Shown here piece after piece: positions 21,352 to 63,426 of a DNA stretch of 64,000 bases. The notes under the pieces were generated by a model. That model was given only the letters and a program-made list of their open reading frames with translations. It did no database searches and was not told the DNA's origin. Source of the DNA: a virus; the IMG/VR virus record IMGVR_UViG_3300043411_002995, positions 47,706 through 111,705 of that record. One strand, 5' to 3'. The translations under genes were made by a program, and so were the position numbers. Position 1 is the stretch's first letter, and every line of letters begins with the position of its first letter.

Positions 21352-21370
21352 GGCATAAGAAAGGACAGAA
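21352..21370 (+). promoter_or_regulatory. phage-specific promoter candidate GGCATAAG-N8-GAA
   Basis: One of six copies located just upstream of plus-strand genes. Confidence 0.7.
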
Positions 21371-22331: not shown

Positions 22332-22829
22332 ATGACGCCGTTCCTCCAGGCCTTCACCGATGAGCTGGTCAAGCTCGGCGCGGACAACGACCTGGTCGAC
22401 GTCTTCCGGGAGGCCAAGAAGGAGACCCGGAGGCAGCCGGCGCGGGACAGCGCCCTGAGCGCGCTGCGCGGGAACGGCACCCCGGTCAGCCGCAACTACC
22501 TCGCGTCGATGTTGATCGGCGGGATCTCGGTGCCGGCGGTGGCGGTCATGAGCAAGCGGATCTCGCGGGCCCTGAACAACAAGACCGTGCAGCGTGAGCT
22601 CCGCGGCCTTGGGCCGATGGCGCACCCGAAGAAGGTCCGGGCGCTGCGCGACGAGTTGCACACCGGCCCGTCGTTCGGGCGCGCGCGCCCCGGCACGCCG
22701 TTGAACACCCGGCCGCTCATCACGCACGGCGAGGCCGCCGGTCTTGCGGCGAGCGGCGTCGCGACCGGTGGCCTGGTGCAGATGATCCGGGACTACTTCG
22801 CGGGCAGCGCGCCGACGACCCCGCGCTAG
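22332..22829 (+). CDS. putative internal head protein with AFTDELVKLG tag
   Basis: MTPFLQAFTDELVKLGA; TACACT 7 nt before the ATG (leaderless). Confidence 0.75.
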   Translation: MTPFLQAFTDELVKLGADNDLVDVFREAKKETRRQPARDSALSALRGNGTPVSRNYLASMLIGGISVPAVAVMSKRISRALNNKTVQRELRGLGPMAHPKKVRALRDELHTGPSFGRARPGTPLNTRPLITHGEAAGLAASGVATGGLVQMIRDYFAGSAPTTPR

Positions 22830-24601
22830 AAGCGGTTCGAGCTGATGTCGGCGGCGAGCTTGCAGTAGACCAGCGAGTGCAGCCCGTCGTCGGGCTGGTC
22901 GATCGGGTGGTCGTAGTTCATCGTGCGCGTGCGCTCGTTGTACTCGATGTACTCGGCGAGGATGTCCTTGCCGAAGGACTCGAACTCGGCCCACTCGGGG
23001 AGGATGAACTTCTTCTGCTTGAAGCCGAGGAAGGTGTCGGCGAGGACGGCGTTGCGGTTGATGATGAACTTGTGGGCCTCAGGGTCGTACTTCTTCCGCT
23101 CGCCGAGGCTGGTGGAGTAGGCGAACTGCATGACGCCGGTGCGGCCGCGGGCCTTGAAGAGGCGGCTGTTGACGCCCCAGCCGTGGCCCCAGTCGGCGCC
23201 GAGGACCTCGACACCCCAGTGGCCGCAGATGTTGAGCACGTCGGGGACGATGATCTCGGGATCGATGTCCTTGCCGGTGTAGCGCTTCCAGAGGAAGGGC
23301 CAGAAGAGCTCGTCGTTGACGTAGGCCCCGAGCGTGAGCACGGTCCACGACGCGAACTTCTTCCGCCCCTTCTCGGCCGAGCCCTCCTGGCGTCCTTCGC
23401 CCCAGTCGATCCCGCCGAAGATGCGGAGGCCGTGCATCTTCGAGTTCTTGGTGTGGATGATCTTGCGCGTCTCGCGCGTGGGGATCTGCTTGTCGGGGTA
23501 GCAGCACTTCTGCAGGTCCATCCGCGTCACGGGGGCGGACGCGGTGTCGTACGAGAAGCCGAGGATCTCGTTCTGGAACTTGTTCTCGGGCCACTTCTCG
23601 TAGGGGAGGACGATCTCCTTCCGCCAGGCGTTCTCCCCCTGCTTCCAGGGGACCATCAGCTGGGAGATGTGGTAGCCGACGTAGTACTCGCCGGGGCAGA
23701 AGGTGACCCACTGACCCTGGGAGGCGTCGAGGGCCTTGCCGCAGTTGGAGCAGATCAGGCCGGTCTTGCCGATGTTCCGCTCGTCGAGGAAGTTCCAGTA
23801 GCTCCCCGCCTCGCCGCTCTTGCAGTCGCAGGGGACGAGCCACTCGTTCTGCGTGGACCACTGCCAGTACTCCTCGAGGGTGTTGGAGTGGGTCAGCGGC
23901 GTGCCGGTGATCATCTCCGAGCCCTGGACGCCGGCGGAAAGCAACGAGGCCGACAGCGACTGGCTGATGACCTTGATGTTGTCCTTGAGCAAGTCCTGGG
24001 CTTCGTCGAAGAACACGCGCGACGCCGGGATGCCGCGGGCGCGGGCGGCGGTCAGGTACGCCGCGCGCAAGAAGATGTACGACCCGTTCATCAGGGTCTT
24101 CTCGAAGACCTGATCGATGACGCCCTTGCCGAGGTACAGGTTCTTCAGGAAGGGCGAGTCGTAGAGGGTCGGCCGCAGCTTCTCGTTCGAGTACTGCCGG
24201 GTCTGTTGGTGCGACGGCGAGACGTAGAGCGTGCGCCAGTGGGGGTGGAGCACGGCCTCGAGGATCTGGAGGCAGCAGACCGTCGTCGACTTCGCGACCT
24301 GGCGCGAGGTCTTCATGACCAGCTGGCTGTCCTGGTCGTTGTAGATCGGGATCAGGAAGGCGTGGTTGTCGAGCCGGAGCGGCTTGCCGAGGTGGTAGAG
24401 GATCGCCTGGGCGATGTCGGATCGGCGCCCGTGGAACGTGGGGATGCCGCCCTCGGACTTCGCGGCGAACTCCTTCAGCTGCGGCGCCCACTTGTAGGCC
24501 GCGTTCCAGTTGATGTCCCGGATCATCGCCGGGCGCGCTTCCCCCTTGCCCTCGAAGTCGAAGGGGTCGTCCTCGAGGACGCCATCGGCTTCGTCCAGCA
24601 C
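22826..24601 (-). CDS. terL: terminase large subunit
   Basis: GTG 24601 with AAGGAG; KTSRQVAKST (Walker A), VFFDEAQD (Walker B), ITGTP, FGGIDWG and PDDGLH nuclease motifs. Confidence 0.9.
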   Translation of the reverse strand: MLDEADGVLEDDPFDFEGKGEARPAMIRDINWNAAYKWAPQLKEFAAKSEGGIPTFHGRRSDIAQAILYHLGKPLRLDNHAFLIPIYNDQDSQLVMKTSRQVAKSTTVCCLQILEAVLHPHWRTLYVSPSHQQTRQYSNEKLRPTLYDSPFLKNLYLGKGVIDQVFEKTLMNGSYIFLRAAYLTAARARGIPASRVFFDEAQDLLKDNIKVISQSLSASLLSAGVQGSEMITGTPLTHSNTLEEYWQWSTQNEWLVPCDCKSGEAGSYWNFLDERNIGKTGLICSNCGKALDASQGQWVTFCPGEYYVGYHISQLMVPWKQGENAWRKEIVLPYEKWPENKFQNEILGFSYDTASAPVTRMDLQKCCYPDKQIPTRETRKIIHTKNSKMHGLRIFGGIDWGEGRQEGSAEKGRKKFASWTVLTLGAYVNDELFWPFLWKRYTGKDIDPEIIVPDVLNICGHWGVEVLGADWGHGWGVNSRLFKARGRTGVMQFAYSTSLGERKKYDPEAHKFIINRNAVLADTFLGFKQKKFILPEWAEFESFGKDILAEYIEYNERTRTMNYDHPIDQPDDGLHSLVYCKLAADISSNRF

Positions 24602-25497
24602 TAGGACTCCTTCTTGTCGGCGGTCTTCTTCGTGGGAACCGCGACCTGGCCGGCCAGCTGCGCCAGGGAGATGTGGGAGGACTTCTCGGGCTTCACCGAG
24701 AAGAGCCCCTGGAAGTCGGCGGTGCTGGGGGTGCCGTCGCTCTTCGGCACGCCGAGCCCGGCGGTCTTCTTGACGCTGAGCGCGCGCAGGGTGAGCTCGG
24801 CCCACCGCATGGCGCCAGCGAGCTCGGGTTGGGGGGTGTCCATCGCCAGCTTGAACTGCTGGTACGTCTTGTTGATGATCGTGTTGACGATCTGCTCGTC
24901 GCTGTGGACCGACGCGACGCCGAGCATGTCCCGCACCTCCTCCGCGGTGGGCGAGGCGACGCCGAAGGCGACGTAGCTGCGCTCCTCCTGGGAGATGAGC
25001 TTCTTGTAGAAGTCGTCCCAGGCCTTGCGGCTGAGCAGCTTGACGTCCCAGTAGATGTGCCGGTAGGTGCTCAGGGCGTCGTTGCTGAGCTCGATCCCGT
25101 AGTGCTCGAAGAGGAGCTTCTGGATCTCGCCGGCGCTGGCGCGCGAGAGCAGCAGGCAGCCCAGGATGGCGCGCGTGTGGACGTTCGTGAAGAGCCGGAA
25201 GGCCAGGTCGGCGTGGGGCGGCGCGGCCGCGCGGCCGAACTCGCGCTGCATCCGCCAGAGGTCACCGACGCCCTCGGCGTCGGCCCAGGCGAGCACTCCC
25301 TCCAGGTCGGTGATCTCGGTGTCGGTGCCGTCGATGAACGCGCCGACCGACGTCGGCGCGGTGTCGCGGAGGTGCTGGCGGCAGTCGGCGAGCCACAGGT
25401 CGCCGACGCGCGGCAGCTCGTAGCGCTCAAGCGTCGAGTTGATCTCGATCTTGCGCGAGACGAGGAACCGGAGGAATCGCTCGTAGGGGTACCTCAC
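24601..25497 (-). CDS. hypothetical protein, possible terminase small subunit
   Basis: Coupled directly upstream of terL; helical; function from position only. Confidence 0.55.
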   Translation of the reverse strand: MRYPYERFLRFLVSRKIEINSTLERYELPRVGDLWLADCRQHLRDTAPTSVGAFIDGTDTEITDLEGVLAWADAEGVGDLWRMQREFGRAAAPPHADLAFRLFTNVHTRAILGCLLLSRASAGEIQKLLFEHYGIELSNDALSTYRHIYWDVKLLSRKAWDDFYKKLISQEERSYVAFGVASPTAEEVRDMLGVASVHSDEQIVNTIINKTYQQFKLAMDTPQPELAGAMRWAELTLRALSVKKTAGLGVPKSDGTPSTADFQGLFSVKPEKSSHISLAQLAGQVAVPTKKTADKKES

Positions 25498-29691: not shown

Positions 29692-30201
29692 ATGTCTTCG
29701 TATCTCGTCATCATGAGACACCGAGCCAAGTCTCTCGTGGCTAAGGCCACGGATTGTCGGCTCACCCTGGGCGAGTTCCTGCTCGACCAGACGGGCATCG
29801 TGGCGCGGCTCAACGGCGCGCTGGCGAAGTACTCGCGCCACATCGGCTGGCCCTACGTGCCCATCGGGTTCGCGACGCTGCGCGCCCTGATGGAGGACAT
29901 CCGCTACGGCGAGGCCGACACGTTCGATCTGGTCTGCCGGCGGTTCGGGTTCTCGGAGTCCGCCTCAGCGCCGATCGTCGAACGGGCGATCGGCCGGGTC
30001 GAGTGGCACATCGGTCCTGACGCACCGTGCGAGACCATGTGGCACGAGTCCGACCTGATCGAGGACGCCCAACGGCTCATCCGCTGGGGCGAGAGCCTCG
30101 TCACCCGCTGCCCCAACGGCGTCGTCGCGCACCAGCTGCAGGCGCTGGTGGCGATGTCGCGCGAGGACCTCGGGCGGTACGTCGCCCGCGCTCTGGGGTA
30201 G
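29692..30201 (+). CDS. hypothetical protein
   Basis: GC3 bias, follows ssb. Confidence 0.65.
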   Translation: MSSYLVIMRHRAKSLVAKATDCRLTLGEFLLDQTGIVARLNGALAKYSRHIGWPYVPIGFATLRALMEDIRYGEADTFDLVCRRFGFSESASAPIVERAIGRVEWHIGPDAPCETMWHESDLIEDAQRLIRWGESLVTRCPNGVVAHQLQALVAMSREDLGRYVARALG

Positions 30202-30211
30202 CATCCTCGGG

Positions 30212-30691
30212 ATGCGGAAGCCCCCCGAGGACATGACCAGCACGGAGGACCTCTGGCTCCGTGCGCTCGATCGCCAATGGCAGGAAACCCCCGAGCACCT
30301 CAAGGAGCTCGGGCAGGTCCTGCGCCGCAGCGTCGACCACGATGTGGACGAGCTCGCGGCATTCCTTTCCAAGCACGAGATCCAGGTCGCCGCGGAACAC
30401 CTCGCGGAGTTCCGCGACGTCCTGATCGTCAAGCGCATCGACATGAAGGACCTCGAGCCAGCGGCGCGCGCCCGCCTGCGCGCCCGCCTCCTTCAAGCCG
30501 ACGACCCGCGCCACATGACGGCGGACTACGCCGCGGCCATCCAGGCCGGCGAAGTCCCGCGGTGCCGCAGCTGCCGATGGTTCGTCACCGCACCCGGTGA
30601 CACCACCGCCGGCGGCGACAAGCCCTGCACCAGCTTCGGAACCAAGGGCGCCGACCAGGCGTGCTTCGGCTTCACGAAGACCGATCTCTGA
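30212..30691 (+). CDS. hypothetical protein with C-terminal Cys4 cluster
   Basis: CRSC...C...C; TAGCAT 7 nt before the ATG. Confidence 0.7.
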   Translation: MRKPPEDMTSTEDLWLRALDRQWQETPEHLKELGQVLRRSVDHDVDELAAFLSKHEIQVAAEHLAEFRDVLIVKRIDMKDLEPAARARLRARLLQADDPRHMTADYAAAIQAGEVPRCRSCRWFVTAPGDTTAGGDKPCTSFGTKGADQACFGFTKTDL

Positions 30692-30722
30692 AAAGGCTCT
30701 CGCTCCTTCATGAGCCTTTTCG

Positions 30723-30771
30723 ACGGCGCACGGGGCGGTTGGCTCCCAACCCCTGCGCCGTTTTTTTAGCC
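30723..30771 (+). terminator. intrinsic terminator hairpin plus T-run ending TTAGCC
   Basis: ACGGCGCA...TGCGCCGT stem then TTTTTTTAGCC. Confidence 0.8.
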
Positions 30772-31869
30772 TGAGGGCGTCGCGAGCCGCGAGCCGCGAG
30801 CCGGGTTGTAGAGCGACTCGACCATGTCCTTGTAGAAGGCGGTCTTGCTCGGCGGCTTCGCCTGGGCGCGCTCCTTCGCCGGCCCGCCGACCTGCCCAGG
30901 ACCGATGCTCTTCGGCTTGGGCGGGCTGGTCCCCATGCGCCAGGCCGAGCTCGCGCTCGAGCGCAAGGCCCCCGGTGCCTTGACCTCGGCGCCGGCCGCC
31001 GCCGCCCCGAGCTTCTCCTCCTGCGCTTCGAGCTCGCCCGCCCGCCGCTTCGCCGCCGCCCCTTCCCTCAGCGCCTCGACCAGCCGCTTGGCCAGGATGG
31101 TCGCCAGGACCGGCGCCGCCGCCGCCGCGACGTAGGTGCCGAAGGACGGGGCGAGCTCCTTCAGTGCGCGCATGGTGCCGTAGCCGCTGTGGCGAGCCCC
31201 CTGCAACGCCTTGTAGGACGCCCGCGCCTCCTCGATGAGTTCGGGGGCGGTGGTGGCGGCCACCAGCGCGGGGGCGTGGTCGTAGACGAACCGCCGGACC
31301 CGCTCCCCCTCCTGGGGCTCCGAGATCGTGCTGGCCGCGAGCCCCGCCCGAACCAGGTGGCCGATGGTGGACCCCGTGCCGAGCGTCTTGCCCATCGACT
31401 GGAGGGCCCGCCGCAGGTCGTGGCTGCCGGCGATCGGCGAGGCGTGGCCGATCTCGTGGAACGCCTGTGGGACCGACGACCGGTTGAGCCCGATGTGGGG
31501 GGTGACGTCGCCGACGGGCTCGCCGGCGATGCGCATGAGCAGGCTGCGGAGCGGGCCGGGGCGGTCCATGAAGTAGCCGGACTCGAACCCCGGCCCACCG
31601 GCGATGATGGGGACGGTGACGCCGCTCTTGCGGGCGAAGTCGGCGATTGCCTCCGCCTCGGCGCGCGTGAACTTCGAGAGCCGCTTCAGCGGCGTGCCGG
31701 TGTCGTCGTCGAGCGGCACGCCGGACATGAGCAGCTTCGCGAGCCCGTGCGGAGCGTCGCTCGTGAGCGGAGAGATCACGCGAGGAAGCCCTTCGTACGC
31801 GGCCGCGGCCGCGAGCGCTGGCGCGACGCCGAGCCCCCCACCGTCTTCCTGGTCCCGATCGTCGGACAT
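30766..31869 (-). CDS. membrane-associated zinc metallopeptidase (YugP/Zn_peptidase_2-like)
   Basis: AFHEIGHA, LIEEARASYKAL, FGTYVAAA; start overlaps the RNAP stop. Confidence 0.7.
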   Translation of the reverse strand: MSDDRDQEDGGGLGVAPALAAAAAYEGLPRVISPLTSDAPHGLAKLLMSGVPLDDDTGTPLKRLSKFTRAEAEAIADFARKSGVTVPIIAGGPGFESGYFMDRPGPLRSLLMRIAGEPVGDVTPHIGLNRSSVPQAFHEIGHASPIAGSHDLRRALQSMGKTLGTGSTIGHLVRAGLAASTISEPQEGERVRRFVYDHAPALVAATTAPELIEEARASYKALQGARHSGYGTMRALKELAPSFGTYVAAAAAPVLATILAKRLVEALREGAAAKRRAGELEAQEEKLGAAAAGAEVKAPGALRSSASSAWRMGTSPPKPKSIGPGQVGGPAKERAQAKPPSKTAFYKDMVESLYNPARGSRLATPSG

Positions 31870-34800
31870 CAGTAGACGCCTTCCTTCCTGGAACGACCCT
31901 GCGGGGCATCACCGAACTCGGCGCCGTAGGCGAAGGCCGGGACCGGTGAGTACCCGTGGAGGTCTGACTCGCTCATGGTGGCAGCGCCTTCGATGAGGCC
32001 CCTGGCCAGCTCACGATACCCCATCTGCCCCATCCAGTCGTCGCGGAGGAGGGGTACCCGCTGGATGCCGGCGAGGAAGGGTTCGTGGACGACCCGCTTC
32101 GGGCCCACGCCGATCGTCTTCTTCCCGCGGCGCTCCAAGACCGCCTTCATCGTCTCGTCGAAGGTCTCGCCCTTGGTAGCGCCGGGCACATCGTCCTCGT
32201 GCACGACATGCCCGACGGCTTCCTCGAGAGGCAGGTCACCGACCTTCTTGTTGTTGTAGTCGTTGACGACGGTCCACGACGCCACGTCACCCGGCAGGTA
32301 GGGGCCATCGCCAGGATCCAACACCCGCGTGGTGTTCCCCGCCGCGCGCACGACGGTCTCGATCGCCCGCCGCTTCAGCTTCACACCCTGGCCGTCGAAG
32401 GCCTTGTGGATCTCCTCGACGACGTAGTTCATCGCAGGGAGCATGCCCTTGAGGCGAACGAGGTCCTGCGGCTGCGCGATGCCCTTCGACAGGATGTCAC
32501 CACGCTTCACCTCGGACCCGACCCGGACGCGATCGCTGTCCCAGAGCCCCTGCTCGACGAAGACCGGCTCCTTCGAACCGCGGATGAAGATGTTCGTGCC
32601 GCCGCCGCCGGGCACGTCCTCGATCCGGTCGACCTTGCCGTCGGCCTCGGCCAAGGCCGCGCGGCCGCGCTTGATCTGGTGCAGCTTGAAGAGCTTGTCG
32701 ATCGCGGCGTACCCATCGAGGACGCCGCGCGTGCCCGAGACGCCGCCCTGGTGGAAGGTGCGCATCGTCATCTGGGTCAGCGGCTCGGACATCGCCTGAC
32801 CGGAGATCGCCCCGACGTTGTCGCCGATCGCCGGCAGCTTGCCGTTCTCGGTGATGCCGTAGCTCTTGGCGCTGATGCCGTGGGGCGTCGGGTCGGTCAA
32901 CGGCGACATCACCCACAGCGTCTTCTGCTTGCGGTCGCGCAGGGTGTTCAGCAGCGCCGCGGTGACCTGGTCGCCGGCGTGGGCGATGACCGTCCCGCCG
33001 ATGCGGATGTCCTTCGACAGGAAGCGGTCCTCGAGGTCGTTCGACCGGTTGTCGACCGGCAGCTCGATGCCTTCCTGCGGCCCCGAGTCGTGCCGCGAGA
33101 CCACCTGGGTCACCGAGGTGGCCATGATGTCCTTGTTGAAGGCGCCGGGCTCGGAGGTCTGCATCTGCTTGTCCACCGCGGCGGCCCGCGCGCCGTAGAG
33201 GGTCGCCCAGTAGTCGGACAGCGGCAGCCCCTCGGCGAACGAGCGCATCACCGGCGCGAGCTGGGCGTTGCCCCGGTGGTCGTCGACCATGAACGGCGCC
33301 GAGACGATCTGCTTGAGCTGGTTGCGGTTGCCGCGCGCGCCCGACCGCACCATCAGGTCGAAGTTGTTGTCCTGCTCGGGCAGGCGGACCTTGAGCATCG
33401 CGTTGAGCTCGTCGTTGGCCGCCGAGATGAGCTGCTCGCCGCTCGCACGCCCCTCGGGGGTGTCGAGCTTCAGCCCCAAGAGCCCCTTCCGGGTGCGCTC
33501 GAAGATCGCCTTCTTCTCGGGCAGGTCGGGGAGCAGGTCCTTCAGGCTCACGGTGAACCCGGTCTTGTAGGTGTGGAGGTCCCCCATCTTCTTGAGCTTG
33601 TCGACGACCCCGCCGTGGTCCTTCGGCAGCACGCGCGCGAGGTCGCGCATCAGCTCGTCGAGCCCCTTGCTGTCGAGCTCGCGGTCCGCGAACTTCGTCT
33701 GCAGCTCGGGTGGCAGCACCTGCAGCAACTCGGGCTTGTACTTCGGGTCGCGCGACATCTGGTACAGCCCCAGCGCCGCCTCGTTCTGCGGCTTGATCAT
33801 GATGCCGCCGGTGCCCGGGTTGAAGAGGTTCCGCGACGGCATCATCCGGTACGCCTCCTCGATCGCGTCCTCGAGGATGGGCACGTGGACGTTCATGGCG
33901 TCGCCGTCGAAGTCGGCGTTGAAGCCCTTCACGACGAGCGGCGGGATCTTGATCGCCCTCCCATCGGTCATCTGCGGCGTGAAGCCCATCACCGAGAACT
34001 TGTGGAGCGAGGGGGCGCGGTTGAGCAGCACCGGGCGCGAGGCCATCTCGGCCTGCAGCGCCGATAGCGCGATGGGGGATCGCTTGTCGATCTCCTCCTC
34101 CGCGGCGAGCGGCTTCATGCCCGAGTGGTTCACCAAGCGCCGGGTCACGAACGGGCGGAAGAGCGTCCAGGACATCTCCTCGGGGAGTCCGACCTCGTCG
34201 ACGCCGAGCTTGGGCTCGGGGATGATGGTGCCGCGGCCGACCAGGTTCTGTCGCCGGCGCAGCACCTCGTACTGGAAGTAGCCGGTCTTCGCCGGCTTGC
34301 CCTTGACCTGCTCGAGCACGCCCTTGGGCCGGCGGGCCTCGGGGTAGAAGGCGATCGGCTTGCCGATGCCCGAGAGCGCCTGCATGCCCTTGTAGAGGTC
34401 CTCGCGGAGCGGCGCGCTCACCGAGTCGGGGATGAACGGGATGTCGTTCTGCCACTTCAGCTCGTTGTTCACGAGCGCAAGGTCGCGGTAGAGCGTGTTG
34501 AGCCCGGGCGTCGACAACGACCCATCCTCCATCTCGACGACGGGGCGGAAGTTGGGGGGGATGACGGGGAGCTTCGTCTGGACGTAGGCGTCCTCGGGGC
34601 GGATCTTGAGCTTCTTGAGCGCGGAGAGGTACTTCAGGCTCTTGTTCGCCTTGTCGAGCTCCTCGGGGGTCCGTGCCTGCTTGGCCTCCTCGGTCCACTG
34701 GGAGATCTGGTCGTCGACGTTGATCTTGCCGAGCAGCGCCTTCACGGCGGCGCCGCTGGTGACGGTGACGGGATCCTTCTCGTCGCCGAACTCCCCGGTC

Positions 34801-37800
34801 TCGGGGTTCACCCAGAGCTTGCCGGTGACCAGGCCACTGAACTGCTGCTCGTTGAGCCCGGTGAGCTGTCGGATCGGCTTCTCGAAGATGGGGTTCGGGA
34901 CGGGCTCGGCCAGATCGATGTGCCCCCAGCGGTCGCCCTTGCGGCCGCCGAAGACCGTGCGGTCGAGCAACCCGCCGCGCTCCTCCTTCAGGTCCTTGGC
35001 GTTGACGAAGACCGGATCGACGACCGCGCCGTTGCTGATCTTGTCGACGTCGGCGTCCGTCATCGGCTGCAGGACCATCTTCGAGCCGTTCCGCTTCACG
35101 TTGATGCCGGCGGCCTGGAGGTAGCCCTCGAACTTCTTGTAGGCGAAGGTCGGGGTCGGCGGCGGCTTCATCAGCCCTGAGCCGGCGCCGCCGGCGAGCC
35201 AGGTCCAGAACGGCTCGTTCTTGGACGCCTTGTAGGTCGCCATCTCGCGCAGGTTCGCGCGCGCGCCATGCGACAGCATCGAGTAGAAGGTGATGAGGTC
35301 GAGCGCCTTGGCGCCTTCCTCGCCGCCGCTCACGGGGTTCCCGTTGGAGTCGTACTTGCCCTCGCCGCGCGCCGAGTACTGGGTAGTCGCCTGCTTTCCG
35401 AGCTTCAGGATGTACTGCGGCCCGGTCATGACCTGCCCCAACGCCTCCTTGCTGTGGGGGTCGTAGAGCGTCTCGGTGTCGGAGACGCCGGCCTTGGCCA
35501 GCTCGTCGCTGACCCGCTGGGCGTACCCGTCCTTGCTCGTGATCGCGTTGTCGACGATGTAGGGCTTGCCCCGGTGCTCGGCGAGCTTGGCGGCCGCCGT
35601 CTCGAGCATCTGGGACGGGTTCACGCGGCTGGTGATGCCGTGCGGGTTGAGGAGGATATCGATCGGCTCGTGCGTGCCGTCGGGCTTGATCGAGTACGGC
35701 GCCTCCGCATCCTCGATGATCTTCGTGATGATGCCCTTGCCGCCGTGACGGTTCGTGACCTTGTCGCCGATCTGCGCTGGCTCGCGCGTGCGGACGTAGA
35801 CCTTCACCTTCTTGCCCGTGCGGACGACGTCGACGACCTCGCCGTCGTAGTCCTCGGTCCACTCCTCGGCGACCCCCCGCTTCGGGGGCATGTTGGCGCC
35901 GAGGCGACGCATCGCGAGGTAGTCGGGGTCGTTCTTGTTGTCCTTGGTGCCGACCCAGAGCGGGTCGCCCTTGCGGACGATCTGTCCCTTCCGGATGACC
36001 CCATCCTTGTCGAGCTTGGCCGAGGTCTCGTCGTCGATCGCCCCGGGCTTCCACGCCCGGTACTGGTCGAGCGAGAGGGTCGTCTGCTCGTTGAGCATCG
36101 TCGAGTACTGGTGCATGTGCTCGCTGGTGAGCTTTTTGCGCGCGCTCTCGGTGATGACGATGCCGTCCTCGAAGTTGTAGCCCTTCCAGGGGATGTAGGC
36201 GGCCTTGAGGTTGGTGCCGATCGCCATCACCCCGTCGGAGGTGAAGTTGGTGTCGGCCAGGGTCTCGCCCTTCTTGACGGCCTGCCCCTCGACCACGCGC
36301 ACCGTCGAGTCGACGAACGCCTTGTTGTTCAGCGGGAGGTTGCTGAACAGCGGATGCTCGTTCTCGCCGTCCTTGGTCTTGACCACGATCTTGTTCTTCG
36401 AGATCGACTGGACGACGCCGTCCTCGAGGGCGGCGGTGGAGAAACTCCCGCCGATCGCCCGCTCGATCGTGCCGCCCCCGACCTTCACCTGCACGAGCGG
36501 CGCCTCGCGGTTGACCAGCGGGATCGCCTGCTCGAGCATCTTGGTCGCCATCTGCGCCCGGACGCCCATGGCGGCGGGCAAGAAGGGGATGGTGTTCGAG
36601 GCGATCGAGAAGGCCTGCCGTGGTGAGTGCAGCACCACGTCGACCTGGTCGGCATCGACCAGCCGGCGCTCCCCGTTGACGTGGGCCAGCACCTTCTTGT
36701 CGATCGCCACGCCGTCCTCGAACTGGTCGGAGAAGGAGAGCGTGAGGTTCGCGGCCTCGGCCGCGGTGATCTTCCGGTTCTTCTTCGTCTTGACGTCGTA
36801 GACGGTGGTCTCGAGCTCGTCGCCGCGCTTGCTCACGCCCACCGGCAGGTGCATCGTCAGGCCGATGTGGCCGGAGTCGGGCGTGTGGATCGGATCGATG
36901 AACCCGAGCTGCGACGGGTGGACGGCGCGCTCCTCCGCCCGGACGTTCTGCGCGTTGGACCCCGCGCCGCCCTCGCCCATGATGGTGACCTTGGTCATCC
37001 CGTTGAGCATGTGGATCGGGTTCGTCTGATCGGGCACGTGGGCGTGCCCGCCGGTCTGCGTGAAGAACGACGAGAGCGTCGAGGAGAGCTGGTTCGAGCT
37101 CACGAGCTGCCCGACCTGCGTCGGGGGCTGCCGCTGGTTGTTCAGCTTCCGCAGGATCTTCCTGCGGTACTCGTTGAGGAACGGCTGGATCTCGCCGTTG
37201 TCCTTGACGAGACGCTCGCGCATCAGGTCCGAGACGGACATGATCTTCTTGAACTCGAGGGACTGGCGATCGTCGGGCGCCCGCTTCCCAGCGGCGGCGG
37301 CGATCAGCTCCTTGGAGCTGGCGACGATGGCCTCGGGGGAGACCTTGTCGAAGGCCTGGCCCACCGTCTTCTTGGTGACCTCGGGGCGGAGCTCGGTCTG
37401 GTCGAAGTAGGCCAGGAGCGCCTTGCCGGCCTCGTCAGGCGTCTCGAACCGCGGGCGCGTGTCACCCGCCCGCAGCCGCTTCAGGTCGGCGGCCTTGTCG
37501 GCGGCGAAGTACTCGGCGGCCTTCTTGACGGACTCGTTCGCCTTCTTCTTCGAGGCGGCCTTGTTCGCGCTGAGGATCTGGTCGCCCCAGGCCCGCGCCA
37601 GGGTTGAGTCGGCCACGCCCATGGCCGAGAGGATGGGGTAGAGCGCCGGGCCGCTCTTGTCCTCGGCGCCGCCGGCGCGGCGGGCGAGGCGGAAGACCGT
37701 GGAGGCGGGGTTGAACTCGACGTCGAAGGCGCGGCCGGCGACGTTGATCTCGGCCTTCGTCTCGCCGTTCTTCTTCTCGGTGACGTAGATGCCCGGCTTG

Positions 37801-38156
37801 CGGCGCAGCTGGCTCTGCACCTGGTAGTGCTTGCCGTCGACGATGAAACTGCCGAAGTTGGTGGCCTTGGGCAGGGTCGCGATCTTCATGCGCTTCTGCG
37901 TGGAGATCACCTTCCCGGTCTTGCGGTCGGTGAGCTCGAGGTTCGCGTAGACCGGGACGCCCCAGGTCTTGTCCTTCCGCACGGCCTCGCGCTGGCCCTC
38001 GGCGTCCCCGGGATCAGCCGAGTCGTCGACCCAGACCTCCTTGGCCCGGAGGCGGAGGCCGGTCTGCTCGGCCTGGACGTCGAGGGCCTTGGTGAAGGCC
38101 TCCGCGATGTCCTTCTTCACCTTCTCGAACTGGCTCTGGTAGTCGAAGCTCTCCAT
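31869..38156 (-). CDS. rpoBC: single-chain beta/beta' fusion DNA-directed RNA polymerase
   Basis: beta motifs GYNFEDGI, GDKVTNRHGGKG, LNPHGITSRVN; beta' motifs LLNRAPSLH, NADFDGD (33900-33920), SGARG, EPLTQMTMRTFH; no stop between halves. Confidence 0.95.
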   Translation of the reverse strand: MESFDYQSQFEKVKKDIAEAFTKALDVQAEQTGLRLRAKEVWVDDSADPGDAEGQREAVRKDKTWGVPVYANLELTDRKTGKVISTQKRMKIATLPKATNFGSFIVDGKHYQVQSQLRRKPGIYVTEKKNGETKAEINVAGRAFDVEFNPASTVFRLARRAGGAEDKSGPALYPILSAMGVADSTLARAWGDQILSANKAASKKKANESVKKAAEYFAADKAADLKRLRAGDTRPRFETPDEAGKALLAYFDQTELRPEVTKKTVGQAFDKVSPEAIVASSKELIAAAAGKRAPDDRQSLEFKKIMSVSDLMRERLVKDNGEIQPFLNEYRRKILRKLNNQRQPPTQVGQLVSSNQLSSTLSSFFTQTGGHAHVPDQTNPIHMLNGMTKVTIMGEGGAGSNAQNVRAEERAVHPSQLGFIDPIHTPDSGHIGLTMHLPVGVSKRGDELETTVYDVKTKKNRKITAAEAANLTLSFSDQFEDGVAIDKKVLAHVNGERRLVDADQVDVVLHSPRQAFSIASNTIPFLPAAMGVRAQMATKMLEQAIPLVNREAPLVQVKVGGGTIERAIGGSFSTAALEDGVVQSISKNKIVVKTKDGENEHPLFSNLPLNNKAFVDSTVRVVEGQAVKKGETLADTNFTSDGVMAIGTNLKAAYIPWKGYNFEDGIVITESARKKLTSEHMHQYSTMLNEQTTLSLDQYRAWKPGAIDDETSAKLDKDGVIRKGQIVRKGDPLWVGTKDNKNDPDYLAMRRLGANMPPKRGVAEEWTEDYDGEVVDVVRTGKKVKVYVRTREPAQIGDKVTNRHGGKGIITKIIEDAEAPYSIKPDGTHEPIDILLNPHGITSRVNPSQMLETAAAKLAEHRGKPYIVDNAITSKDGYAQRVSDELAKAGVSDTETLYDPHSKEALGQVMTGPQYILKLGKQATTQYSARGEGKYDSNGNPVSGGEEGAKALDLITFYSMLSHGARANLREMATYKASKNEPFWTWLAGGAGSGLMKPPPTPTFAYKKFEGYLQAAGINVKRNGSKMVLQPMTDADVDKISNGAVVDPVFVNAKDLKEERGGLLDRTVFGGRKGDRWGHIDLAEPVPNPIFEKPIRQLTGLNEQQFSGLVTGKLWVNPETGEFGDEKDPVTVTSGAAVKALLGKINVDDQISQWTEEAKQARTPEELDKANKSLKYLSALKKLKIRPEDAYVQTKLPVIPPNFRPVVEMEDGSLSTPGLNTLYRDLALVNNELKWQNDIPFIPDSVSAPLREDLYKGMQALSGIGKPIAFYPEARRPKGVLEQVKGKPAKTGYFQYEVLRRRQNLVGRGTIIPEPKLGVDEVGLPEEMSWTLFRPFVTRRLVNHSGMKPLAAEEEIDKRSPIALSALQAEMASRPVLLNRAPSLHKFSVMGFTPQMTDGRAIKIPPLVVKGFNADFDGDAMNVHVPILEDAIEEAYRMMPSRNLFNPGTGGIMIKPQNEAALGLYQMSRDPKYKPELLQVLPPELQTKFADRELDSKGLDELMRDLARVLPKDHGGVVDKLKKMGDLHTYKTGFTVSLKDLLPDLPEKKAIFERTRKGLLGLKLDTPEGRASGEQLISAANDELNAMLKVRLPEQDNNFDLMVRSGARGNRNQLKQIVSAPFMVDDHRGNAQLAPVMRSFAEGLPLSDYWATLYGARAAAVDKQMQTSEPGAFNKDIMATSVTQVVSRHDSGPQEGIELPVDNRSNDLEDRFLSKDIRIGGTVIAHAGDQVTAALLNTLRDRKQKTLWVMSPLTDPTPHGISAKSYGITENGKLPAIGDNVGAISGQAMSEPLTQMTMRTFHQGGVSGTRGVLDGYAAIDKLFKLHQIKRGRAALAEADGKVDRIEDVPGGGGTNIFIRGSKEPVFVEQGLWDSDRVRVGSEVKRGDILSKGIAQPQDLVRLKGMLPAMNYVVEEIHKAFDGQGVKLKRRAIETVVRAAGNTTRVLDPGDGPYLPGDVASWTVVNDYNNKKVGDLPLEEAVGHVVHEDDVPGATKGETFDETMKAVLERRGKKTIGVGPKRVVHEPFLAGIQRVPLLRDDWMGQMGYRELARGLIEGAATMSESDLHGYSPVPAFAYGAEFGDAPQGRSRKEGVY

Positions 38157-38174
38157 GGTCACCTGGTGCCGTCG

Positions 38175-38191
38175 GGCATAAGCCTCGTGAA
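38175..38191 (+). promoter_or_regulatory. phage-specific promoter candidate GGCATAAG-N6-GAA
   Basis: Exact motif, divergent from the RNAP start. Confidence 0.75.
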
Positions 38192-38300
38192 GGAGGGATG
38201 TTACGCGTGAGCCATCGTAGCAAGAACCCCCCGCGGCCGCTGCGCTCCGTCACCGTCGGAGCGTTCGATGCCGTCTTGACCTGCTGGCACGAGGAGATAC

Positions 38301-38525
38301 ATGTCCGCGCTGATCGTCCTGCTCAACCCGCGGCCGCGGGGCCGCTCTGCACCCAGTCGCCAGTCGCCCCCGACCCGGATCCGGGCACTGGCCGACGCTA
38401 GCATCCAGTTCGGCCGCACCCTGATCGCAGGCTGGATGCTGCTGGCCTGGGTCCTCATCCTGACGAAAGAGGCGATGCGCGGCATCGCGTGGCTCACCGG
38501 CGCCACCGCCGATCTGTCGGCATAA
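38301..38525 (+). CDS. small membrane protein
   Basis: GAGGAG RBS; TLIAGWMLLAWVLIL helix. Confidence 0.6.
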   Translation: MSALIVLLNPRPRGRSAPSRQSPPTRIRALADASIQFGRTLIAGWMLLAWVLILTKEAMRGIAWLTGATADLSA

Positions 38526-38536
38526 GCCAGGGAGAA
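38519..38536 (+). promoter_or_regulatory. phage-specific promoter candidate GGCATAAG-N7-GAA
   Basis: Overlaps the TAA of the preceding ORF, upstream of ATG 38544. Confidence 0.65.
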
Positions 38537-38543
38537 GGAGACT

Positions 38544-38999
38544 ATGTCCTCGTACATCTGCCTGAGGCGCTACGGCCTCATCCGCAAGGCGGCGCCGGCA
38601 CCCCAGCCCGTCCGCTTCTACAAGACCATGCAGAGCCTCGCGGCGATCACCGCGAGCGTCACGGTGCCAGCCCACGGCATGCTGGTCTCGGGCTTCTCCC
38701 ACCAGTCCATCCCCATGCGATCCCAGATCTGGACCTTCTTCAAGCAGCTCCTCCGGGGGTGCGCTTGGGCCGCGGCGATCGCCGCGGGCATGTTGGTCTA
38801 CACGGCGTTCGTCTCCAAGTGGAAGGAGAACGGCTTCCCCACCATCCCCATCAGCGCGCTCGTGGCGATCGATCAGGCCATGCCCAAGAACGGTCCGTCG
38901 AACGTCGTCACGCTCGGTGGCGGCAGTGCGCAGGTCCCATCTCCGCGACCCGCCAACACCCGGCAGACGAACCTCATCGACATCGAGTACGAGGGCTAG
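38544..38999 (+). CDS. hypothetical membrane protein
   Basis: AAGGAG RBS; one hydrophobic helix. Confidence 0.65.
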   Translation: MSSYICLRRYGLIRKAAPAPQPVRFYKTMQSLAAITASVTVPAHGMLVSGFSHQSIPMRSQIWTFFKQLLRGCAWAAAIAAGMLVYTAFVSKWKENGFPTIPISALVAIDQAMPKNGPSNVVTLGGGSAQVPSPRPANTRQTNLIDIEYEG

Positions 39000-39460
39000 T
39001 CGAGCGCGCGCGCTACCAGCATCCCCGCCAACAAGGAGGTCGAGATCGCAGCAACCGTCCACGCGACCGGCGACCCCCACATCGGCTTGACCCGCTCGAG
39101 CTGGTACTTCTTGTCGAGTGCGATCAGATCGGAGGAGAGCTTGTCGGTGCGTGCGACAAGCAGCGCCTGGCTCTTGGCGTAGGTCGCCACCTGGTCCTGC
39201 AGGGACGTCACCTGCAGCGCCAGGTTGGCGGCGCGCTCGCCCTCTTTCTTAGCCACCACCCGCTGGTGGATCAGCTCGGCGTCGACCTCGAGGACGGCCT
39301 TCCAGTCGTCGATGTTGACGTAGCCGCAGATGGTTCCGATTCCCGGCACCACGTACTTCGTGCAGGGGGGAACCAGCTGCGGCTGGTAGACGTCGTCAGC
39401 GTGTGCCGGGGACGTCGTCCCAAGAACGGATGCGATCGATAGCGCGACGATCAGCCTCAT
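38996..39460 (-). CDS. secreted coiled-coil protein with C-terminal TM helix, spanin-partner candidate
   Basis: ATG 39460 with GAGGAGG; signal peptide ending AHA-D, two Cys, coiled coil, hydrophobic C-terminus. Confidence 0.6.
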   Translation of the reverse strand: MRLIVALSIASVLGTTSPAHADDVYQPQLVPPCTKYVVPGIGTICGYVNIDDWKAVLEVDAELIHQRVVAKKEGERAANLALQVTSLQDQVATYAKSQALLVARTDKLSSDLIALDKKYQLERVKPMWGSPVAWTVAAISTSLLAGMLVARALD

Positions 39461-40434: not shown

Positions 40435-40732
40435 CGGAGTCTCCTCTGGTACGGGAAGGGGTCTTGGCCCAGTAGTGAACGAGGAGGATGATCTCCTCGG
40501 TCGTCGTGCTGATGTTGCTCCCGCCCTCCATCGTCTCGGTGATGGTCTTCTTGCGAGAGTACTCCTTGATCATGTCGACCTTGATCCCTTCGGAGAGGTC
40601 GTTCATCCGGTTGCGGAGCTCCGCGTAGGCCTCGCGATCCCCCTGCTCGAAGAGGTTGAACTCCTCGCAGTAGAACGTCCCGAGGTTGCGCCCGCCGACG
40701 CCGCCGAAGTTGACGGGGGTAGCCTTCGCCAT
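40388..40732 (-). CDS. hypothetical protein
   Basis: Start coupled to the portal stop. Confidence 0.65.
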   Translation of the reverse strand: MAKATPVNFGGVGGRNLGTFYCEEFNLFEQGDREAYAELRNRMNDLSEGIKVDMIKEYSRKKTITETMEGGSNISTTTEEIILLVHYWAKTPSRTRGDSDEDDEEDRRRIAPAG

Positions 40733-42765
40733 CAGATCGGCCCTCCGTCACGCCGCGGAGGCGCCGCCTGGGGCAGTGGCTTCTGCTGGTCGGCGACGTC
40801 GCCGGCGGTGGCGCCGGGCGCCATCTGGGACAGGAGCTGCTCGACCAGGCGGGCCATGTTGGGCATCTTCGCGCGCAGCTCGTTGAGGACCTGGACGCGC
40901 TGGCCCTGGTCCATCTTGGAGATCTTGTTGGCCCACTGCTTGGCGACCCGGGCCGCATCGAGCTGCACGACCTGGCCGCCCTGGCCGCCCACGTCCGTCC
41001 CGCCGGCTTGAGTCCCCGCCTCGCCGGCGACGGCCGCCTGCTGCTGGGATGCCTGTTGCTGGGCCGCCTGCTGCGCCATCTGCTGGTCCTGGGCCATCTG
41101 CTCGGGCCCTGCGGCAGGCGCCGGCGCGCCGCCCATGGCCGGGTCCTGGGCCTGCCCTGGAGGCAACGCGCCCTGAGGCCCGGCGTTGCCCTGCTGCTCG
41201 TTCTGGGCCTGCCCCTCCATGCCCGGCTGTCCGCCGGCGGACGCGCCCTGGGCCTCCGCGAAGGCTTCCTGGGCGCGGGCCTGGTAGCGGGCCTGGACGA
41301 TCGACGACTCTCCCTGGGCCTCGGTCTGGGCCTTCATGGTGATCGCCTGGATGCGGTTCCGCTGCTCCGCCTCCTTCTCGATCATGTTGAGCTCGTCGTC
41401 GTAGTCGAACCCGAGCTCGGTGAGCATCGTGTGGTCCGAGATCTTGTTGGCAGCGTTCAGCTGGATGACGATCTGCTTGCGCTGGATGTCGTCCGCCATC
41501 TTGAACTCGGTGAACCCGATGACGACATCGGGCATCCCGAGGTAGAGGCGCACGCGGTTCTTCGCCCAGTTGACGAAGCGCAGCAGCAGCCGGCGGTACA
41601 AGAGGAAGTGGTTCTCGAGGGTGCGCAGCGAGACGGAGCTGCCCGACCACGAGAGGCCGCCGAAGACGAACTCGAGCGGCACGCCCATGCCGCCGGTGAT
41701 CTCCTTGTTCGTCACCTCGATCTCGGGCCCAAGGAGTAGGGCCCGGCCGTCGCCGCCCAAGCGCTCGAACCCGAGCGGTACAGCGACGACCGAGACGTAG
41801 TTCGGGTCGATGCGCCACTTGCGGATCTCCTCCTGCACCGTGCCCTGCCACGTGGACAGGTTGACGTGCTGGTAGGGGTCCTGCTGGGCGTTCGCCTGGG
41901 GGAAGATGAACTCGAGCGGGAGGATGCGCTGCAGCGCGATCGCCTCCTGCGCGCGGCGCAGGACGTAGAGGTAGAACATCCGCCCCATCGAGTGGATGAT
42001 CAGCGGCTTGCCCCACCCCATGTCCTGCTCGGCCAAGGTCGGGCGCTTGAAGTGGAAGAGGTTCTGGTCCGAGAGCGCGACGTCGCGGCTCAGCTTCAGC
42101 GCCAACAGGAAGACCGCGGGGATGTCGACCAAGATCTCGCGCGACCCTTCCTGGATCGCCTTGCGGATCTTGTTCGGGATCTTGTAGCGGTACTTCGACC
42201 GCCCCGTGATCGGGTTGTAGTGGATGTCGATGTTCTTCGGGTCCCACCGAACGAAGTTGATGCCGGTCCGGTCCTTGATCGGCCTGTCGACGATCTCCCC
42301 GACGACCTCGGCGCGGCAGGCCTGGCAACCGTAGTGGAACTGGAAGTTGCGGAACTTGTAGCTGAACGACTCGTCGGAGAGTCGAGCCATCGACTTGCAG
42401 GCTGGGCAGCGCAGCCACCGCACGAACGGCAGGTTCATCGAGATGAACGCGTTGCCGTAGCAGAAGTAGTCGAGGCCGATCTCGATCAGGAAGGGCTTGA
42501 GGTTGAGCTCGTCCTCGAGGAGGGTCTTCCACCCGTCACGGACGTGCTTCTCGTCGGCGTTGTAGACGAAGTCCGTGACCGGGTACTCGGCGATCTTGGT
42601 GACCACCGACCCGATCATCGGGTCCTTGTAGAAGAAGTACTGGCACCACCGGAAGAGCTCCTTCACGGTCGGCGGCATGTACGTCTGCGCGATGTCGAAG
42701 AACGGGGACGGGTACACCGTCCCCCGTCGCCGATCGAGTCGCCCTTGGAACATGCCGTCGGACAT
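40732..42765 (-). CDS. portal protein
   Basis: 677 aa; KIAEYPVT, DYFCYGNAF, LFHFK....GWGKP, ITGGMGVPLEF portal-like motifs; Gln/Ala-rich tail. Confidence 0.8.
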   Translation of the reverse strand: MSDGMFQGRLDRRRGTVYPSPFFDIAQTYMPPTVKELFRWCQYFFYKDPMIGSVVTKIAEYPVTDFVYNADEKHVRDGWKTLLEDELNLKPFLIEIGLDYFCYGNAFISMNLPFVRWLRCPACKSMARLSDESFSYKFRNFQFHYGCQACRAEVVGEIVDRPIKDRTGINFVRWDPKNIDIHYNPITGRSKYRYKIPNKIRKAIQEGSREILVDIPAVFLLALKLSRDVALSDQNLFHFKRPTLAEQDMGWGKPLIIHSMGRMFYLYVLRRAQEAIALQRILPLEFIFPQANAQQDPYQHVNLSTWQGTVQEEIRKWRIDPNYVSVVAVPLGFERLGGDGRALLLGPEIEVTNKEITGGMGVPLEFVFGGLSWSGSSVSLRTLENHFLLYRRLLLRFVNWAKNRVRLYLGMPDVVIGFTEFKMADDIQRKQIVIQLNAANKISDHTMLTELGFDYDDELNMIEKEAEQRNRIQAITMKAQTEAQGESSIVQARYQARAQEAFAEAQGASAGGQPGMEGQAQNEQQGNAGPQGALPPGQAQDPAMGGAPAPAAGPEQMAQDQQMAQQAAQQQASQQQAAVAGEAGTQAGGTDVGGQGGQVVQLDAARVAKQWANKISKMDQGQRVQVLNELRAKMPNMARLVEQLLSQMAPGATAGDVADQQKPLPQAAPPRRDGGPI

Positions 42766-62577: not shown

Positions 62578-63426
62578 CTACCAGAACCTGTCGACCTTCT
62601 TCTTGATCTGACTCTTCAGGGAGCGGATCTTCTGCGGCGACAGGTTGAGCTGCTGGGCGAGCGCCAGGTCGTCCTCGATGACCGGCTTGCCGAAGCCCTC
62701 GAAGGTGTGCTCGAGCACGAGCTGCTGTTCGGGGTTCAAGGACCCGTGGAGGAAGACGATCTGGCGCCGGAGCTTGCTGTCCGCATCCACCTCAACCGCG
62801 CCGCCAGCCATCTCGGTGGTGAGATCCTGGCGCAGCTCCTTCCGCAGCGTGCCCACGACCTTCGGCGTGATCCTGTTGTTCTTGAGGTTCGCGGTGTCCT
62901 GCGCCGAGAGGAGCATGTCGTCGGCGAGCTCGGTGTCGGTGGGCACGCGCCCGAGCTTCTCCTTGAGCTCGTTCTCGCGCTGCTGCAGGAGGCCGATCAG
63001 GCCGGCACGCTCTTCGGGGATGCGGCCGACGTTCGTGTAGCGCTGCAGGTACCGACCGGTGCGGCCGACGCCGTTGTAGACGTGCGAGCTGAACTTGGTC
63101 CCGAAGGAGGGGTCGAAGGTCTTGAGCGCCTCCACGTAGCCGCGCAGCAGGCTGCCCTTCACCGCGCTCTTGGGCACCTGCGCCGAGCTGATGTACCGAT
63201 TGCCGGCGGCGTTGATCAGCGGCTGGTGCTTGTTGTACAGCCACTCGAAGTCCTCGGGGTTCGGCGTCTCCTGCCAGCGCTTGATGACCTCGGCCTCGCC
63301 GGCGTAGAGGTCGTTCGGGTCCAGCCCCTGCTCGAGCGCCTCCTTGACGAGCCACGCCGCGAGCTCAGCGTCGACATCGAAGTCGGCGCTCGGGTCGGTG
63401 TGCTCTTGCTCATCCAGTGAAGCCAC
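62578..63426 (-). CDS. phage sigma70-family RNA polymerase sigma factor
   Basis: GTG 63426 with GAGGA; region 2 (YVEALKTFDPSFGTKFSSHV), region 3 (RIPE...LKEKLGRVPTDTELA), region 4-like (LNPEQQLVL...LAQQLNLSPQKIR). Confidence 0.85.
   Translation of the reverse strand: MASLDEQEHTDPSADFDVDAELAAWLVKEALEQGLDPNDLYAGEAEVIKRWQETPNPEDFEWLYNKHQPLINAAGNRYISSAQVPKSAVKGSLLRGYVEALKTFDPSFGTKFSSHVYNGVGRTGRYLQRYTNVGRIPEERAGLIGLLQQRENELKEKLGRVPTDTELADDMLLSAQDTANLKNNRITPKVVGTLRKELRQDLTTEMAGGAVEVDADSKLRRQIVFLHGSLNPEQQLVLEHTFEGFGKPVIEDDLALAQQLNLSPQKIRSLKSQIKKKVDRFW

Follow-up and report, generated by a model that had tools for sequence, protein, structure and literature searches.

A cysteine-free, single-chain beta-beta' RNA polymerase without zinc sites, encoded between the portal and TerL genes of an uncultured phage and a candidate for virion packaging

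Introduction

How far a bacterial-type RNA polymerase (RNAP) can be reduced, and whether so reduced an enzyme is carried into the host together with the phage genome, are the questions raised by a gene at 31869..38156 (- strand) in a stretch of 64,000 nucleotides from the viral record IMGVR_UViG_3300043411_002995. The stretch, hereafter the window, is the right-hand 64 kb of this 111.7-kb IMG/VR record, which has a G+C content of ~68% and is 71% complete by CheckV. Cellular RNAPs need a scaffold of two alpha subunits for the beta and beta' subunits, and the two zinc ions of beta' are regarded as important for assembly and function. The initial annotation of the locus described a fused beta-beta' enzyme free of cysteine (Cys) and proposed that it is packaged in the virion and injected. 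The analysis reported here indicates that the gene very probably encodes a functional single-chain phage RNAP that works with a phage-encoded sigma factor, and weighs the evidence for packaging and ejection against the alternatives.

Results

Anatomy and predicted fold of the fused polymerase

Translation from the ATG at 38156 to the stop codon at 31869-31871 gives a protein of 2095 aa, a form that is also present in a public protein collection as P0002, and an alternative GTG start two codons before the ATG, at 38162, gives 2097 aa in one intact frame. The Pfam domains Rpb2_3 and Rpb2_6 of beta occupy residues 377-938 and Rpb1_1, Rpb1_2, Rpb1_4 and Rpb1_5 of beta' occupy residues 1148-1824, with E-values of 3.7e-44 for Rpb2_6 and 2.4e-26 for Rpb1_2. 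Domain matches and alignments thus agree with the initial claim that one open reading frame (ORF; 31869..38162, -) carries all core motifs of both subunits, and the features of the gene described below are all on the - strand.

The beta module (residues ~1-1022; 35097..38156) is delimited by alignment to the beta subunits of Thermus and E. coli and aligns over nearly its full length with the minimal beta of Thermus, with residues 57-869 corresponding to 80-902 and residues 894-983 to 969-1061. It includes the segment GFIDPIHTP (36858-36908), which stands where Thermus has GRICPVETP, and the lysine motif of the double-psi beta-barrel, GDKVTNRHGGKG (35721-35768). The rifampicin pocket (36975-37067) is altered, with G, K and T at the positions of E. 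coli H526, R529 and S531. As the resistance genetics of these positions are established, the pocket residues lead to the prediction that the enzyme is insensitive to rifampicin.

The two halves are joined by only a few residues, as had been noted from the sequence. At the junction (residues 1014-1035; 35058..35123; YLQAAGINV-KRNGSK-MVLQPMT), KRNGSK separates the C-terminal AGINV of beta from the beta' sequence, which sets in at approximately E. coli residue 18. The beta' module (residues ~1030-2097; 31872..35075), defined by alignment to bacterial beta' with 26-30% identity, contains the clamp helices (34443-34502), the NADFDGD region PLVVKGFNADFDGD (33882-33941), the bridge helix (33123-33212), the trigger loop (32742-32789) and a family-specific C-terminal motif, PVPAFAYGAEFG (31911-31946). 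Both double-psi beta-barrel motifs, PLVVKGFNADFDGD in beta' and GDKVTNRHGGKG in beta, are therefore present, and a flap-tip-like segment is retained in addition to the NADFDGD, lysine, bridge helix, trigger loop and clamp helix elements. The E. coli insertions SI1 and SI2 of beta and SI3 of beta' are absent from the alignment of the window RNAP. The replacement of normally conserved Cys reported in the initial annotation is also correct, both in GFIDPIHTP and in PLVVKGFNADFDGD, which takes the place of PLVC..NADFDGD.

An AlphaFold2 model of residues 941-2097, calculated from an alignment of 36 family sequences, has a mean pLDDT of 84 and a pTM of 0.80, with pLDDT values of ~93-95 at the junction and 88-92 in the region of the former second zinc site. 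Its Foldseek matches are bacterial beta' chains with TM scores of 0.72-0.78, and the model predicts a beta' fold of bacterial type that is maintained although both zinc sites are gone. The alignments, the Pfam matches and the Cys count bear out the earlier description of a compact, recognisably bacterial-type, fused and Cys-free enzyme.

Absence of cysteine and of both zinc sites

The computed number of Cys in the RNAP is 0/2097. For comparison, genes were called over the whole record using G+C content at third codon positions (GC3). The 56 + strand genes, which include ssb and are read as the replication and early-type set, encode 218 Cys in 12,140 residues (1.80%), and the 52 other - strand genes, which form the morphogenesis block, encode 118 Cys in 17,828 residues (0.66%). 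The expected number of Cys in the RNAP is 37.7 at the + strand rate and 13.9 at the - strand rate; as the probability of finding none is ~1e-6 even at the lower rate, chance is excluded as the cause of their absence.

Neither of the two beta' zinc sites of bacterial RNAP is present. The N-terminal zinc-binding domain of beta' (E. coli C70, C72, C85 and C88) is deleted at 34902..34955 (-), where FGGRKG abuts DRWGHIDLAEP, and this clean excision is common to all family members aligned. At the former second zinc site (Zn2; 32862..33086, -), S1693, D1757, S1764 and S1767 replace the Cys tetrad of the relatives, which corresponds to C814, C888, C895 and C898 of E. coli beta'.

Freedom from Cys is shared by some but not all of the virion and packaging proteins of this phage. 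The sigma homologue described below has 0 Cys in 282 residues, and the translationally coupled 367-aa protein encoded downstream of the RNAP and several large structural proteins are also Cys-free, whereas the portal has 6 Cys and TerL has 11. A further gene without Cys encodes a 760-aa protein on the - strand at record positions 30079-32361, 15.3-17.6 kb to the left of the window, within an otherwise Cys-rich + strand region.

A family of fused phage polymerases

The window RNAP has at least 807 matches in a collection of 5.8 billion proteins. The best 120 of these are all fused, with lengths of ~2000-2100 aa, or of 2400-3200 aa where intein or LAGLIDADG insertions are present, and lie on contigs of up to ~186 kb. 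In all family members aligned, including the window RNAP, the junction is of the same type, (A/V)G(I/V)(N/D)V-x-(R/K/Q)-x-GS-(K/R/E). Almost every insertion-free relative among the best 120 matches has exactly four Cys, and these align with the E. coli Zn2 tetrad. The window RNAP shows the family length of ~2000-2100 aa, the deleted zinc-binding domain and the absence of SI1, SI2 and SI3, and lacks the four Zn2 Cys that are otherwise a family trait. The expectation that homologues would be phage-borne, fused and Cys-poor therefore held, but complete freedom from Cys did not extend to them, as the four Zn2 Cys persist in nearly all of the fused relatives listed. The design is also not unique to the window phage, since it belongs to a family of hundreds that includes a cultured phage.

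A FastTree phylogeny of 38 fused members, Salmonella phage Arash, Vibrio phage D69 and E. coli places the fused family as monophyletic, with a stem to E. coli of 1.9 substitutions per site. In this tree the Cys-free state arose twice, once in the window RNAP's own clade, that of P0001, P0003, P0004 and P0005 (support 1.0), and once in P0006, which branches from within the four-Cys sequences (support 1.0 and 0.993) and in which the residues at the Zn2 positions are H, S, Y and D, different from the S, D, S and S of the window RNAP. Total loss of Cys is thus a derived state of the sub-clade of the window RNAP.

Identity of the window RNAP to cellular or Protein Data Bank (PDB) beta and beta' chains is 25-30%, and in 185,579 species genomes nothing cellular matches better than the rpoB-rpoC genes of Bacteroidota, at 25-29%. 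Low identity and a long stem answer the question of whether the sequence nests within cellular RpoBC on a short branch, which it does not. The scan of species genomes returned cellular Bacteroidota rpoB-rpoC only, drawn by a shared motif, and gave no prophage copy and no clue to the host. A megablast search of 10 kb against the phage collection found no match, and no tRNAs were found in the window.

Cultured relatives were found by tblastn of the window RNAP against phage records, namely Vibrio phages D69, D148 and D181 and Salmonella phage Arash. Their enzymes (in Arash, gp206 and gp216) have 31-32% identity to the window RNAP over beta and the N-terminal part of beta', share the beta-beta' junction, and are encoded just downstream of a portal gene (Arash gp204-gp206). 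Unlike the uninterrupted window RNAP, they are split in beta' after the catalytic domain into pieces of 1525-1527 aa and 606-609 aa, with other genes between the two pieces in Arash and a homing endonuclease annotated under the match in D181 and D148. They also retain the four Cys of Zn2, with 1+4 Cys in Arash and 2+4 in D69, in contrast to none in the window RNAP.

Insertions of the intein or LAGLIDADG type (PF14528, PF14890, PF05204) occur in family members of 2400-3200 aa that include P0010, P0039, P0052, P0058, P0079, P0088, P0116 and others. These many insertions, together with the homing endonuclease of D181 and D148, mark the RNAP gene as a hotspot for selfish elements. In a set of relatives (L009-L014) the portal is ~85-87% identical where the RNAP is 55-62% identical, a difference that points to faster evolution of the RNAP than of the portal.

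A lineage of deep-branching beta and beta' sequences apart from those of cells, mReC, has been described from 97 uncultured Caudovirales contigs (Weinheimer & Aylward 2020, PMC7481178). The window family matches it in kind, as judged by description, in that both comprise uncultured tailed phages, known from IMG/VR and for mReC also from metagenomes, on a deep branch. For the mReC enzyme that paper makes no mention of fusion, zinc sites, Cys, sigma or virions; fusion is mentioned solely for crAssphage, whose enzyme has no match to the COG models of beta and beta' (PMC7481178). A literature search found no paper describing the fusion, the Cys pattern or the biochemistry of the fused phage RNAP family. 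What is new here is the doubly zinc-less, Cys-free variant; a large, biochemically unexplored phage RNAP family with a cultured member is already known.

Genomic context, sigma factor and candidate promoters

The RNAP gene lies within a block of virion genes on one strand, as stated in the initial annotation. The portal gene (40732..42765, -) is upstream, an adjacency conserved across the family, and the TerL gene (22826..24805, -) lies downstream at the far end of the conserved portal-RNAP-TerL block. The major capsid protein (MCP) gene (8110-9006, -), also downstream, was found through Arash gp226, as a Pfam Gp23 search of the record with PF07068, the capsid marker of the mReC paper, gave no match. 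Related IMG/VR loci, down to 24-44% protein identity, have on one strand the succession of portal, RNAP, a conserved 726-aa protein and TerL, and the window phage shares with the family both this placement and a phage-encoded sigma factor. The start codon of the gene for the Cys-free 367-aa protein (30766..31869, -) overlaps the RNAP stop codon by one base. Only the closest relatives encode this protein at the corresponding place (39-49% identity); it has no Pfam or PHROG match and may be a partner of the RNAP or a co-packaged protein.

The divergent sigma-70-family factor of 282 aa (62578..63426, -) starts at the GTG at 63426 behind GAGGA. A Pfam Sigma70_r2 search of the record gave no match, and the gene was found through the sigma sequences of relatives and Arash gp10, a homologue that matches 62923-63291 with 36% identity (E = 1e-19) and that also sits among structural genes in Arash; NCBIfam sigma models match the protein weakly. 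The longest ORF at this position (62578-63681, -) is 85 codons longer and was rejected, as its extension is Arg-rich and has a GC3 of ~0.7 compared to 0.95 in the rest. All five Cys of the longest ORF lie in this spurious N-terminal extension.

Each of three near-complete relatives (G002, G003 and G005, of which G002 is 189 kb long with terminal repeats) has one RNAP module and a sigma-70-family gene, and no T7-like RNAP was found in these three genomes. An alpha subunit was sought as RNA_pol_A_bac and gave no match in the record or in the same three relatives, with 14/14 positive controls recovered. The window RNAP thus departs from the arrangement of separate beta and beta' subunits on an alpha dimer with omega, being a single chain, and it may still use the alpha of the host.

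The 111.7-kb record contains 13 copies of GGCAYAAG, a motif that is not of the sigma70 type, all of them on the + strand: at 21352, 21814, 29158, 38175, 38519, 45569 and 46580 of the window and at six positions further left. Most copies lie between genes and 10-50 nt ahead of + strand genes, ssb among them, several come after T-runs or the reverse complement of the ribosome-binding site of a divergent gene, and the count in the window was reached by no shuffle. These properties make GGCAYAAG a possible phage-specific promoter of the Cys-rich + strand genes. A small island of + strand genes between the portal operon and the RNAP gene (38175..38526, +) carries copies of GGCATAAG at 38175-38182 and 38519-38526, which are candidates for promoters specific to the phage. 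The 10.5 kb around the RNAP gene (30400-40900) yielded no sigma70-like promoter.

In a separate observation, a motif F-x-D-E-L-x-K is present in unrelated small proteins with 0-1 Cys, encoded at 5858-6148, 14824-15228, 16241-17092, 22332-22829 (+) and 57795-58085.

Virion proteins of related and model phages

Particle proteomics of Arash bears on packaging. The particles were purified by sucrose gradient only, and the larger RNAP piece, gp206, leads all proteins by spectra, with 3516, and has 128 unique peptides (PMC10585845). The smaller piece, gp216, has 40 unique peptides and 1210 spectra and is, with gp206, among the top five by spectra; the portal has 32 unique peptides and 877 spectra, and the MCP 30 and 1333. 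The sigma factor gp10 is covered to 100%, and most of the replication enzymes among the entries considered have only 2 unique peptides each (PMC10585845). In phage YerA41, whose split RNAP is a more distant one, the RNAP subunits and sigma are particle-associated (PMC7354516).

The protein encoded directly after the C-terminal beta' piece of Arash, gp217 (L138:2262-3680), is annotated as a DNA helicase and has 0 Cys in 472 aa. In the particle data it has 38 unique peptides, far above most other replication enzymes listed (PMC10585845), and no homologue was found in the window record at E <= 1e-3.

Counts of Cys were obtained for phages whose ejected proteins are established. In N4, the ejected gp50 (the virion RNAP, vRNAP), gp51 and gp52 have 0 Cys in 4294 residues. 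In T7, the ejected gp15 and gp16 have 0/2065 and gp14 has 1/196, compared to 12 Cys in the 883 residues of the intracellular T7 RNAP. The ejected gp7, gp20 and gp16 of P22 have 0 Cys in 1309 residues, and its TerL, portal, gp10 and tailspike all contain Cys; the portals have 4 in P22, 3 in T7 and 2 in N4. The tail-associated lysin gp181 of phiKZ (L008:24334-31047), a very large virion protein with a role at the envelope, is likewise poor in Cys (1 in 2237 aa).

Discussion

Relation to known phage and cellular polymerases

The gene of the N4 vRNAP, gp50, is one of the late virion genes and lies near that of the portal, and the enzyme is ejected with the DNA. Like the window RNAP it is one giant Cys-free chain (3500 aa, 0 Cys), in agreement with the initial annotation, but it has a T7-like single-subunit fold, big N- and C-terminal packaging and ejection domains and no need of sigma, and shows no homology to the window RNAP.

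The virion RNAPs of phiKZ and AR9 are related to beta and beta', lack alpha, are encoded among head genes and are packaged and injected (PMC7598289). They differ from the window RNAP in that they consist of four or five polypeptides, are accompanied by a second, non-virion set of paralogues and use no sigma (PMC7598289), and in that they are not Cys-free, as the count for phiKZ given below shows. The RNAPs of crAss-like phages (gp66) and of P23-45, where the enzyme is fused to the tape measure protein, are single-chain, two-barrel enzymes carried in the virion for early transcription (10.1101/2020.03.07.982082; PMC10770324). These are extremely divergent, whereas six Pfam domains of beta and beta' are recognised in the window RNAP, which can be aligned with the bacterial subunits from one end to the other.

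The fused RpoBC proteins of Helicobacter and Wolbachia (NF007172, NF011417) also have beta followed by beta' in one polypeptide. In contrast to the window RNAP, they are ~2840-2890 aa long and work with alpha2 and omega. The window RNAP scores 462 bits against a cut-off of 5372 and 401 bits against 4632 on the models of these cellular proteins, and the fusion in the window family is independent of the cellular one.

Weighing packaging and ejection against the alternatives

Four lines of evidence indirectly support the packaging of the window RNAP in the virion: Arash gp206 and gp216 are among the top five proteins by particle spectra, the portal-RNAP-TerL order is conserved and fixes the gene within the head-gene block, the sigma homologue is also free of Cys, and the proteins known to be ejected by N4, T7 and P22 contain almost no Cys. 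On this analysis, the complete account, in which the enzyme is both packaged and ejected, is judged moderately probable. It competes with a non-virion role, in which the host RNAP transcribes the early genes, including that of the RNAP, and the fused enzyme and the phage sigma take over middle and late transcription. Poverty in Cys would then be an old trait of the lineage with a different cause, for instance oxidation tolerance or evasion of a host factor, and the detection in Arash would reflect carry-over of an abundant protein. Several observations favour such a role and weigh against packaging and ejection. The Arash particle list holds 116 proteins, assigned as structural from a sucrose gradient and including ribonucleotide reductases, and its authors allow for carry-over of abundant proteins (PMC10585845). 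YerA41 particles likewise contain many replication enzymes, and the RNAP genes of this phage are early rather than late (PMC7354516). The vRNAP of phiKZ is injected although 16 of its 2614 residues are Cys (0.61%; its non-virion paralogue is about twice as rich, with 33 in 2850, 1.16%), so that freedom from Cys is not required for injection. The earlier proposal that Cys was stripped for encapsidation and transit can be offered as a suggestion only. In the window RNAP itself, no extra N- or C-terminal domain is seen in the alignments, the F-x-D-E-L-x-K tag is absent and no packaging signal is visible. Co-transcription with the head genes is uncertain, because + strand genes intervene between the portal operon and the RNAP gene, and the absent portion of the incomplete record might encode a second polymerase or contain host-type early promoters. 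Against the non-virion role stand the 128 unique peptides of the Arash RNAP compared to 2 for most replication enzymes considered and its spectra per residue, which equal or exceed those of the portal (PMC10585845), as well as the family-wide fixation of the gene between portal and TerL, the absence of Cys compared to 1.8% in intracellular enzymes of the same genome, the Cys-free sigma placed in the structural block of both the window phage and Arash, and the lack of a sigma70-type promoter in the 10.5 kb around the gene. The non-virion role is therefore considered unlikely, though a serious competitor.

A different possibility is that the protein enters the capsid but does not leave it as an active enzyme, serving for example in the structure of the head core or in the organisation of the DNA there, with transcription carried out by newly made copies. 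The abundance of the Arash RNAP, comparable per residue to that of the MCP by spectra and beyond what a few catalytic copies would need, is consistent with this (PMC10585845). However, every catalytic motif is conserved over hundreds of sequences, and freedom from Cys fits ejected proteins, unlike fixed head parts such as portals, which keep Cys, making a purely structural role highly improbable. The idea that rpoBC was recently captured from a cell, that the sequence is a cellular contaminant, or that misassembly or a frameshift error joined two genes has nothing in its favour beyond the bacterial-type motifs. Such an origin has a negligible chance and is rejected in view of the 25-30% identity to any cellular or PDB beta and beta', the stem of 1.9 substitutions per site, the junction, deleted zinc-binding domain and PLVV for PLVC that are common to more than 100 phage sequences, the 462 compared to 5372 bits on the Helicobacter-type fused RpoBC model, and the phage genes on both flanks.

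Proposed role in infection

In the favoured account of a packaged and ejected enzyme, the window RNAP would be the sole RNA polymerase of the phage, a minimal single-chain beta-beta' core without zinc sites and without encoded alpha or omega. Its partner is most likely the phage's own Cys-free sigma-70-family factor (62578-63426). The RNAP would be produced from the morphogenesis gene block alongside the head proteins, most likely packed in the capsid, and ejected with the DNA. Once inside the host, it would start phage transcription without new protein synthesis and without the host enzyme, at phage-specific promoters for which GGCAYAAG is the candidate, and the same RNAP would then serve the remaining infection cycle. 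Fusion of the subunits could ensure their delivery at a ratio of 1:1 and allow intramolecular assembly without an alpha scaffold. The absence of Cys and zinc ligands may protect the enzyme outside cells and during passage through the tail and envelope, and could ease its refolding.

A more far-reaching version can be proposed only tentatively and is considered somewhat more doubtful than not. In this version, a polymerase free of thiols and metal sites is co-packed with the Cys-free sigma, ejected through a contractile tail and refolded without alpha scaffold or zinc, and it would run the whole transcription programme from GGCAYAAG-type promoters, so that the phage would not depend on the host RNAP even in the first minute. 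On a more general level, ejection of a large phage protein through the envelope would be predictable from sequence alone wherever the protein has no Cys at all.

Implications

The comparison of ejected proteins suggests a cheap annotation rule, as those of N4, T7 and P22 are almost entirely free of Cys and the intracellular enzymes of these phages are not; the vRNAP of phiKZ shows that the rule is not absolute. Hundreds of uncultured phages, and a few in culture, carry the family to which the window RNAP belongs. If the enzyme is carried in the virion, this family would represent a further route to host-independent early transcription, beside those of N4, phiKZ and AR9, the crAss-like phages and P23-45. 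A single-chain RNAP that can still be aligned with bacterial beta and beta' over its whole length, but lacks zinc ligands, Cys and alpha, would, if confirmed, be the simplest cellular-type transcription machine known and would provide a tractable model for minimal RNAP assembly.

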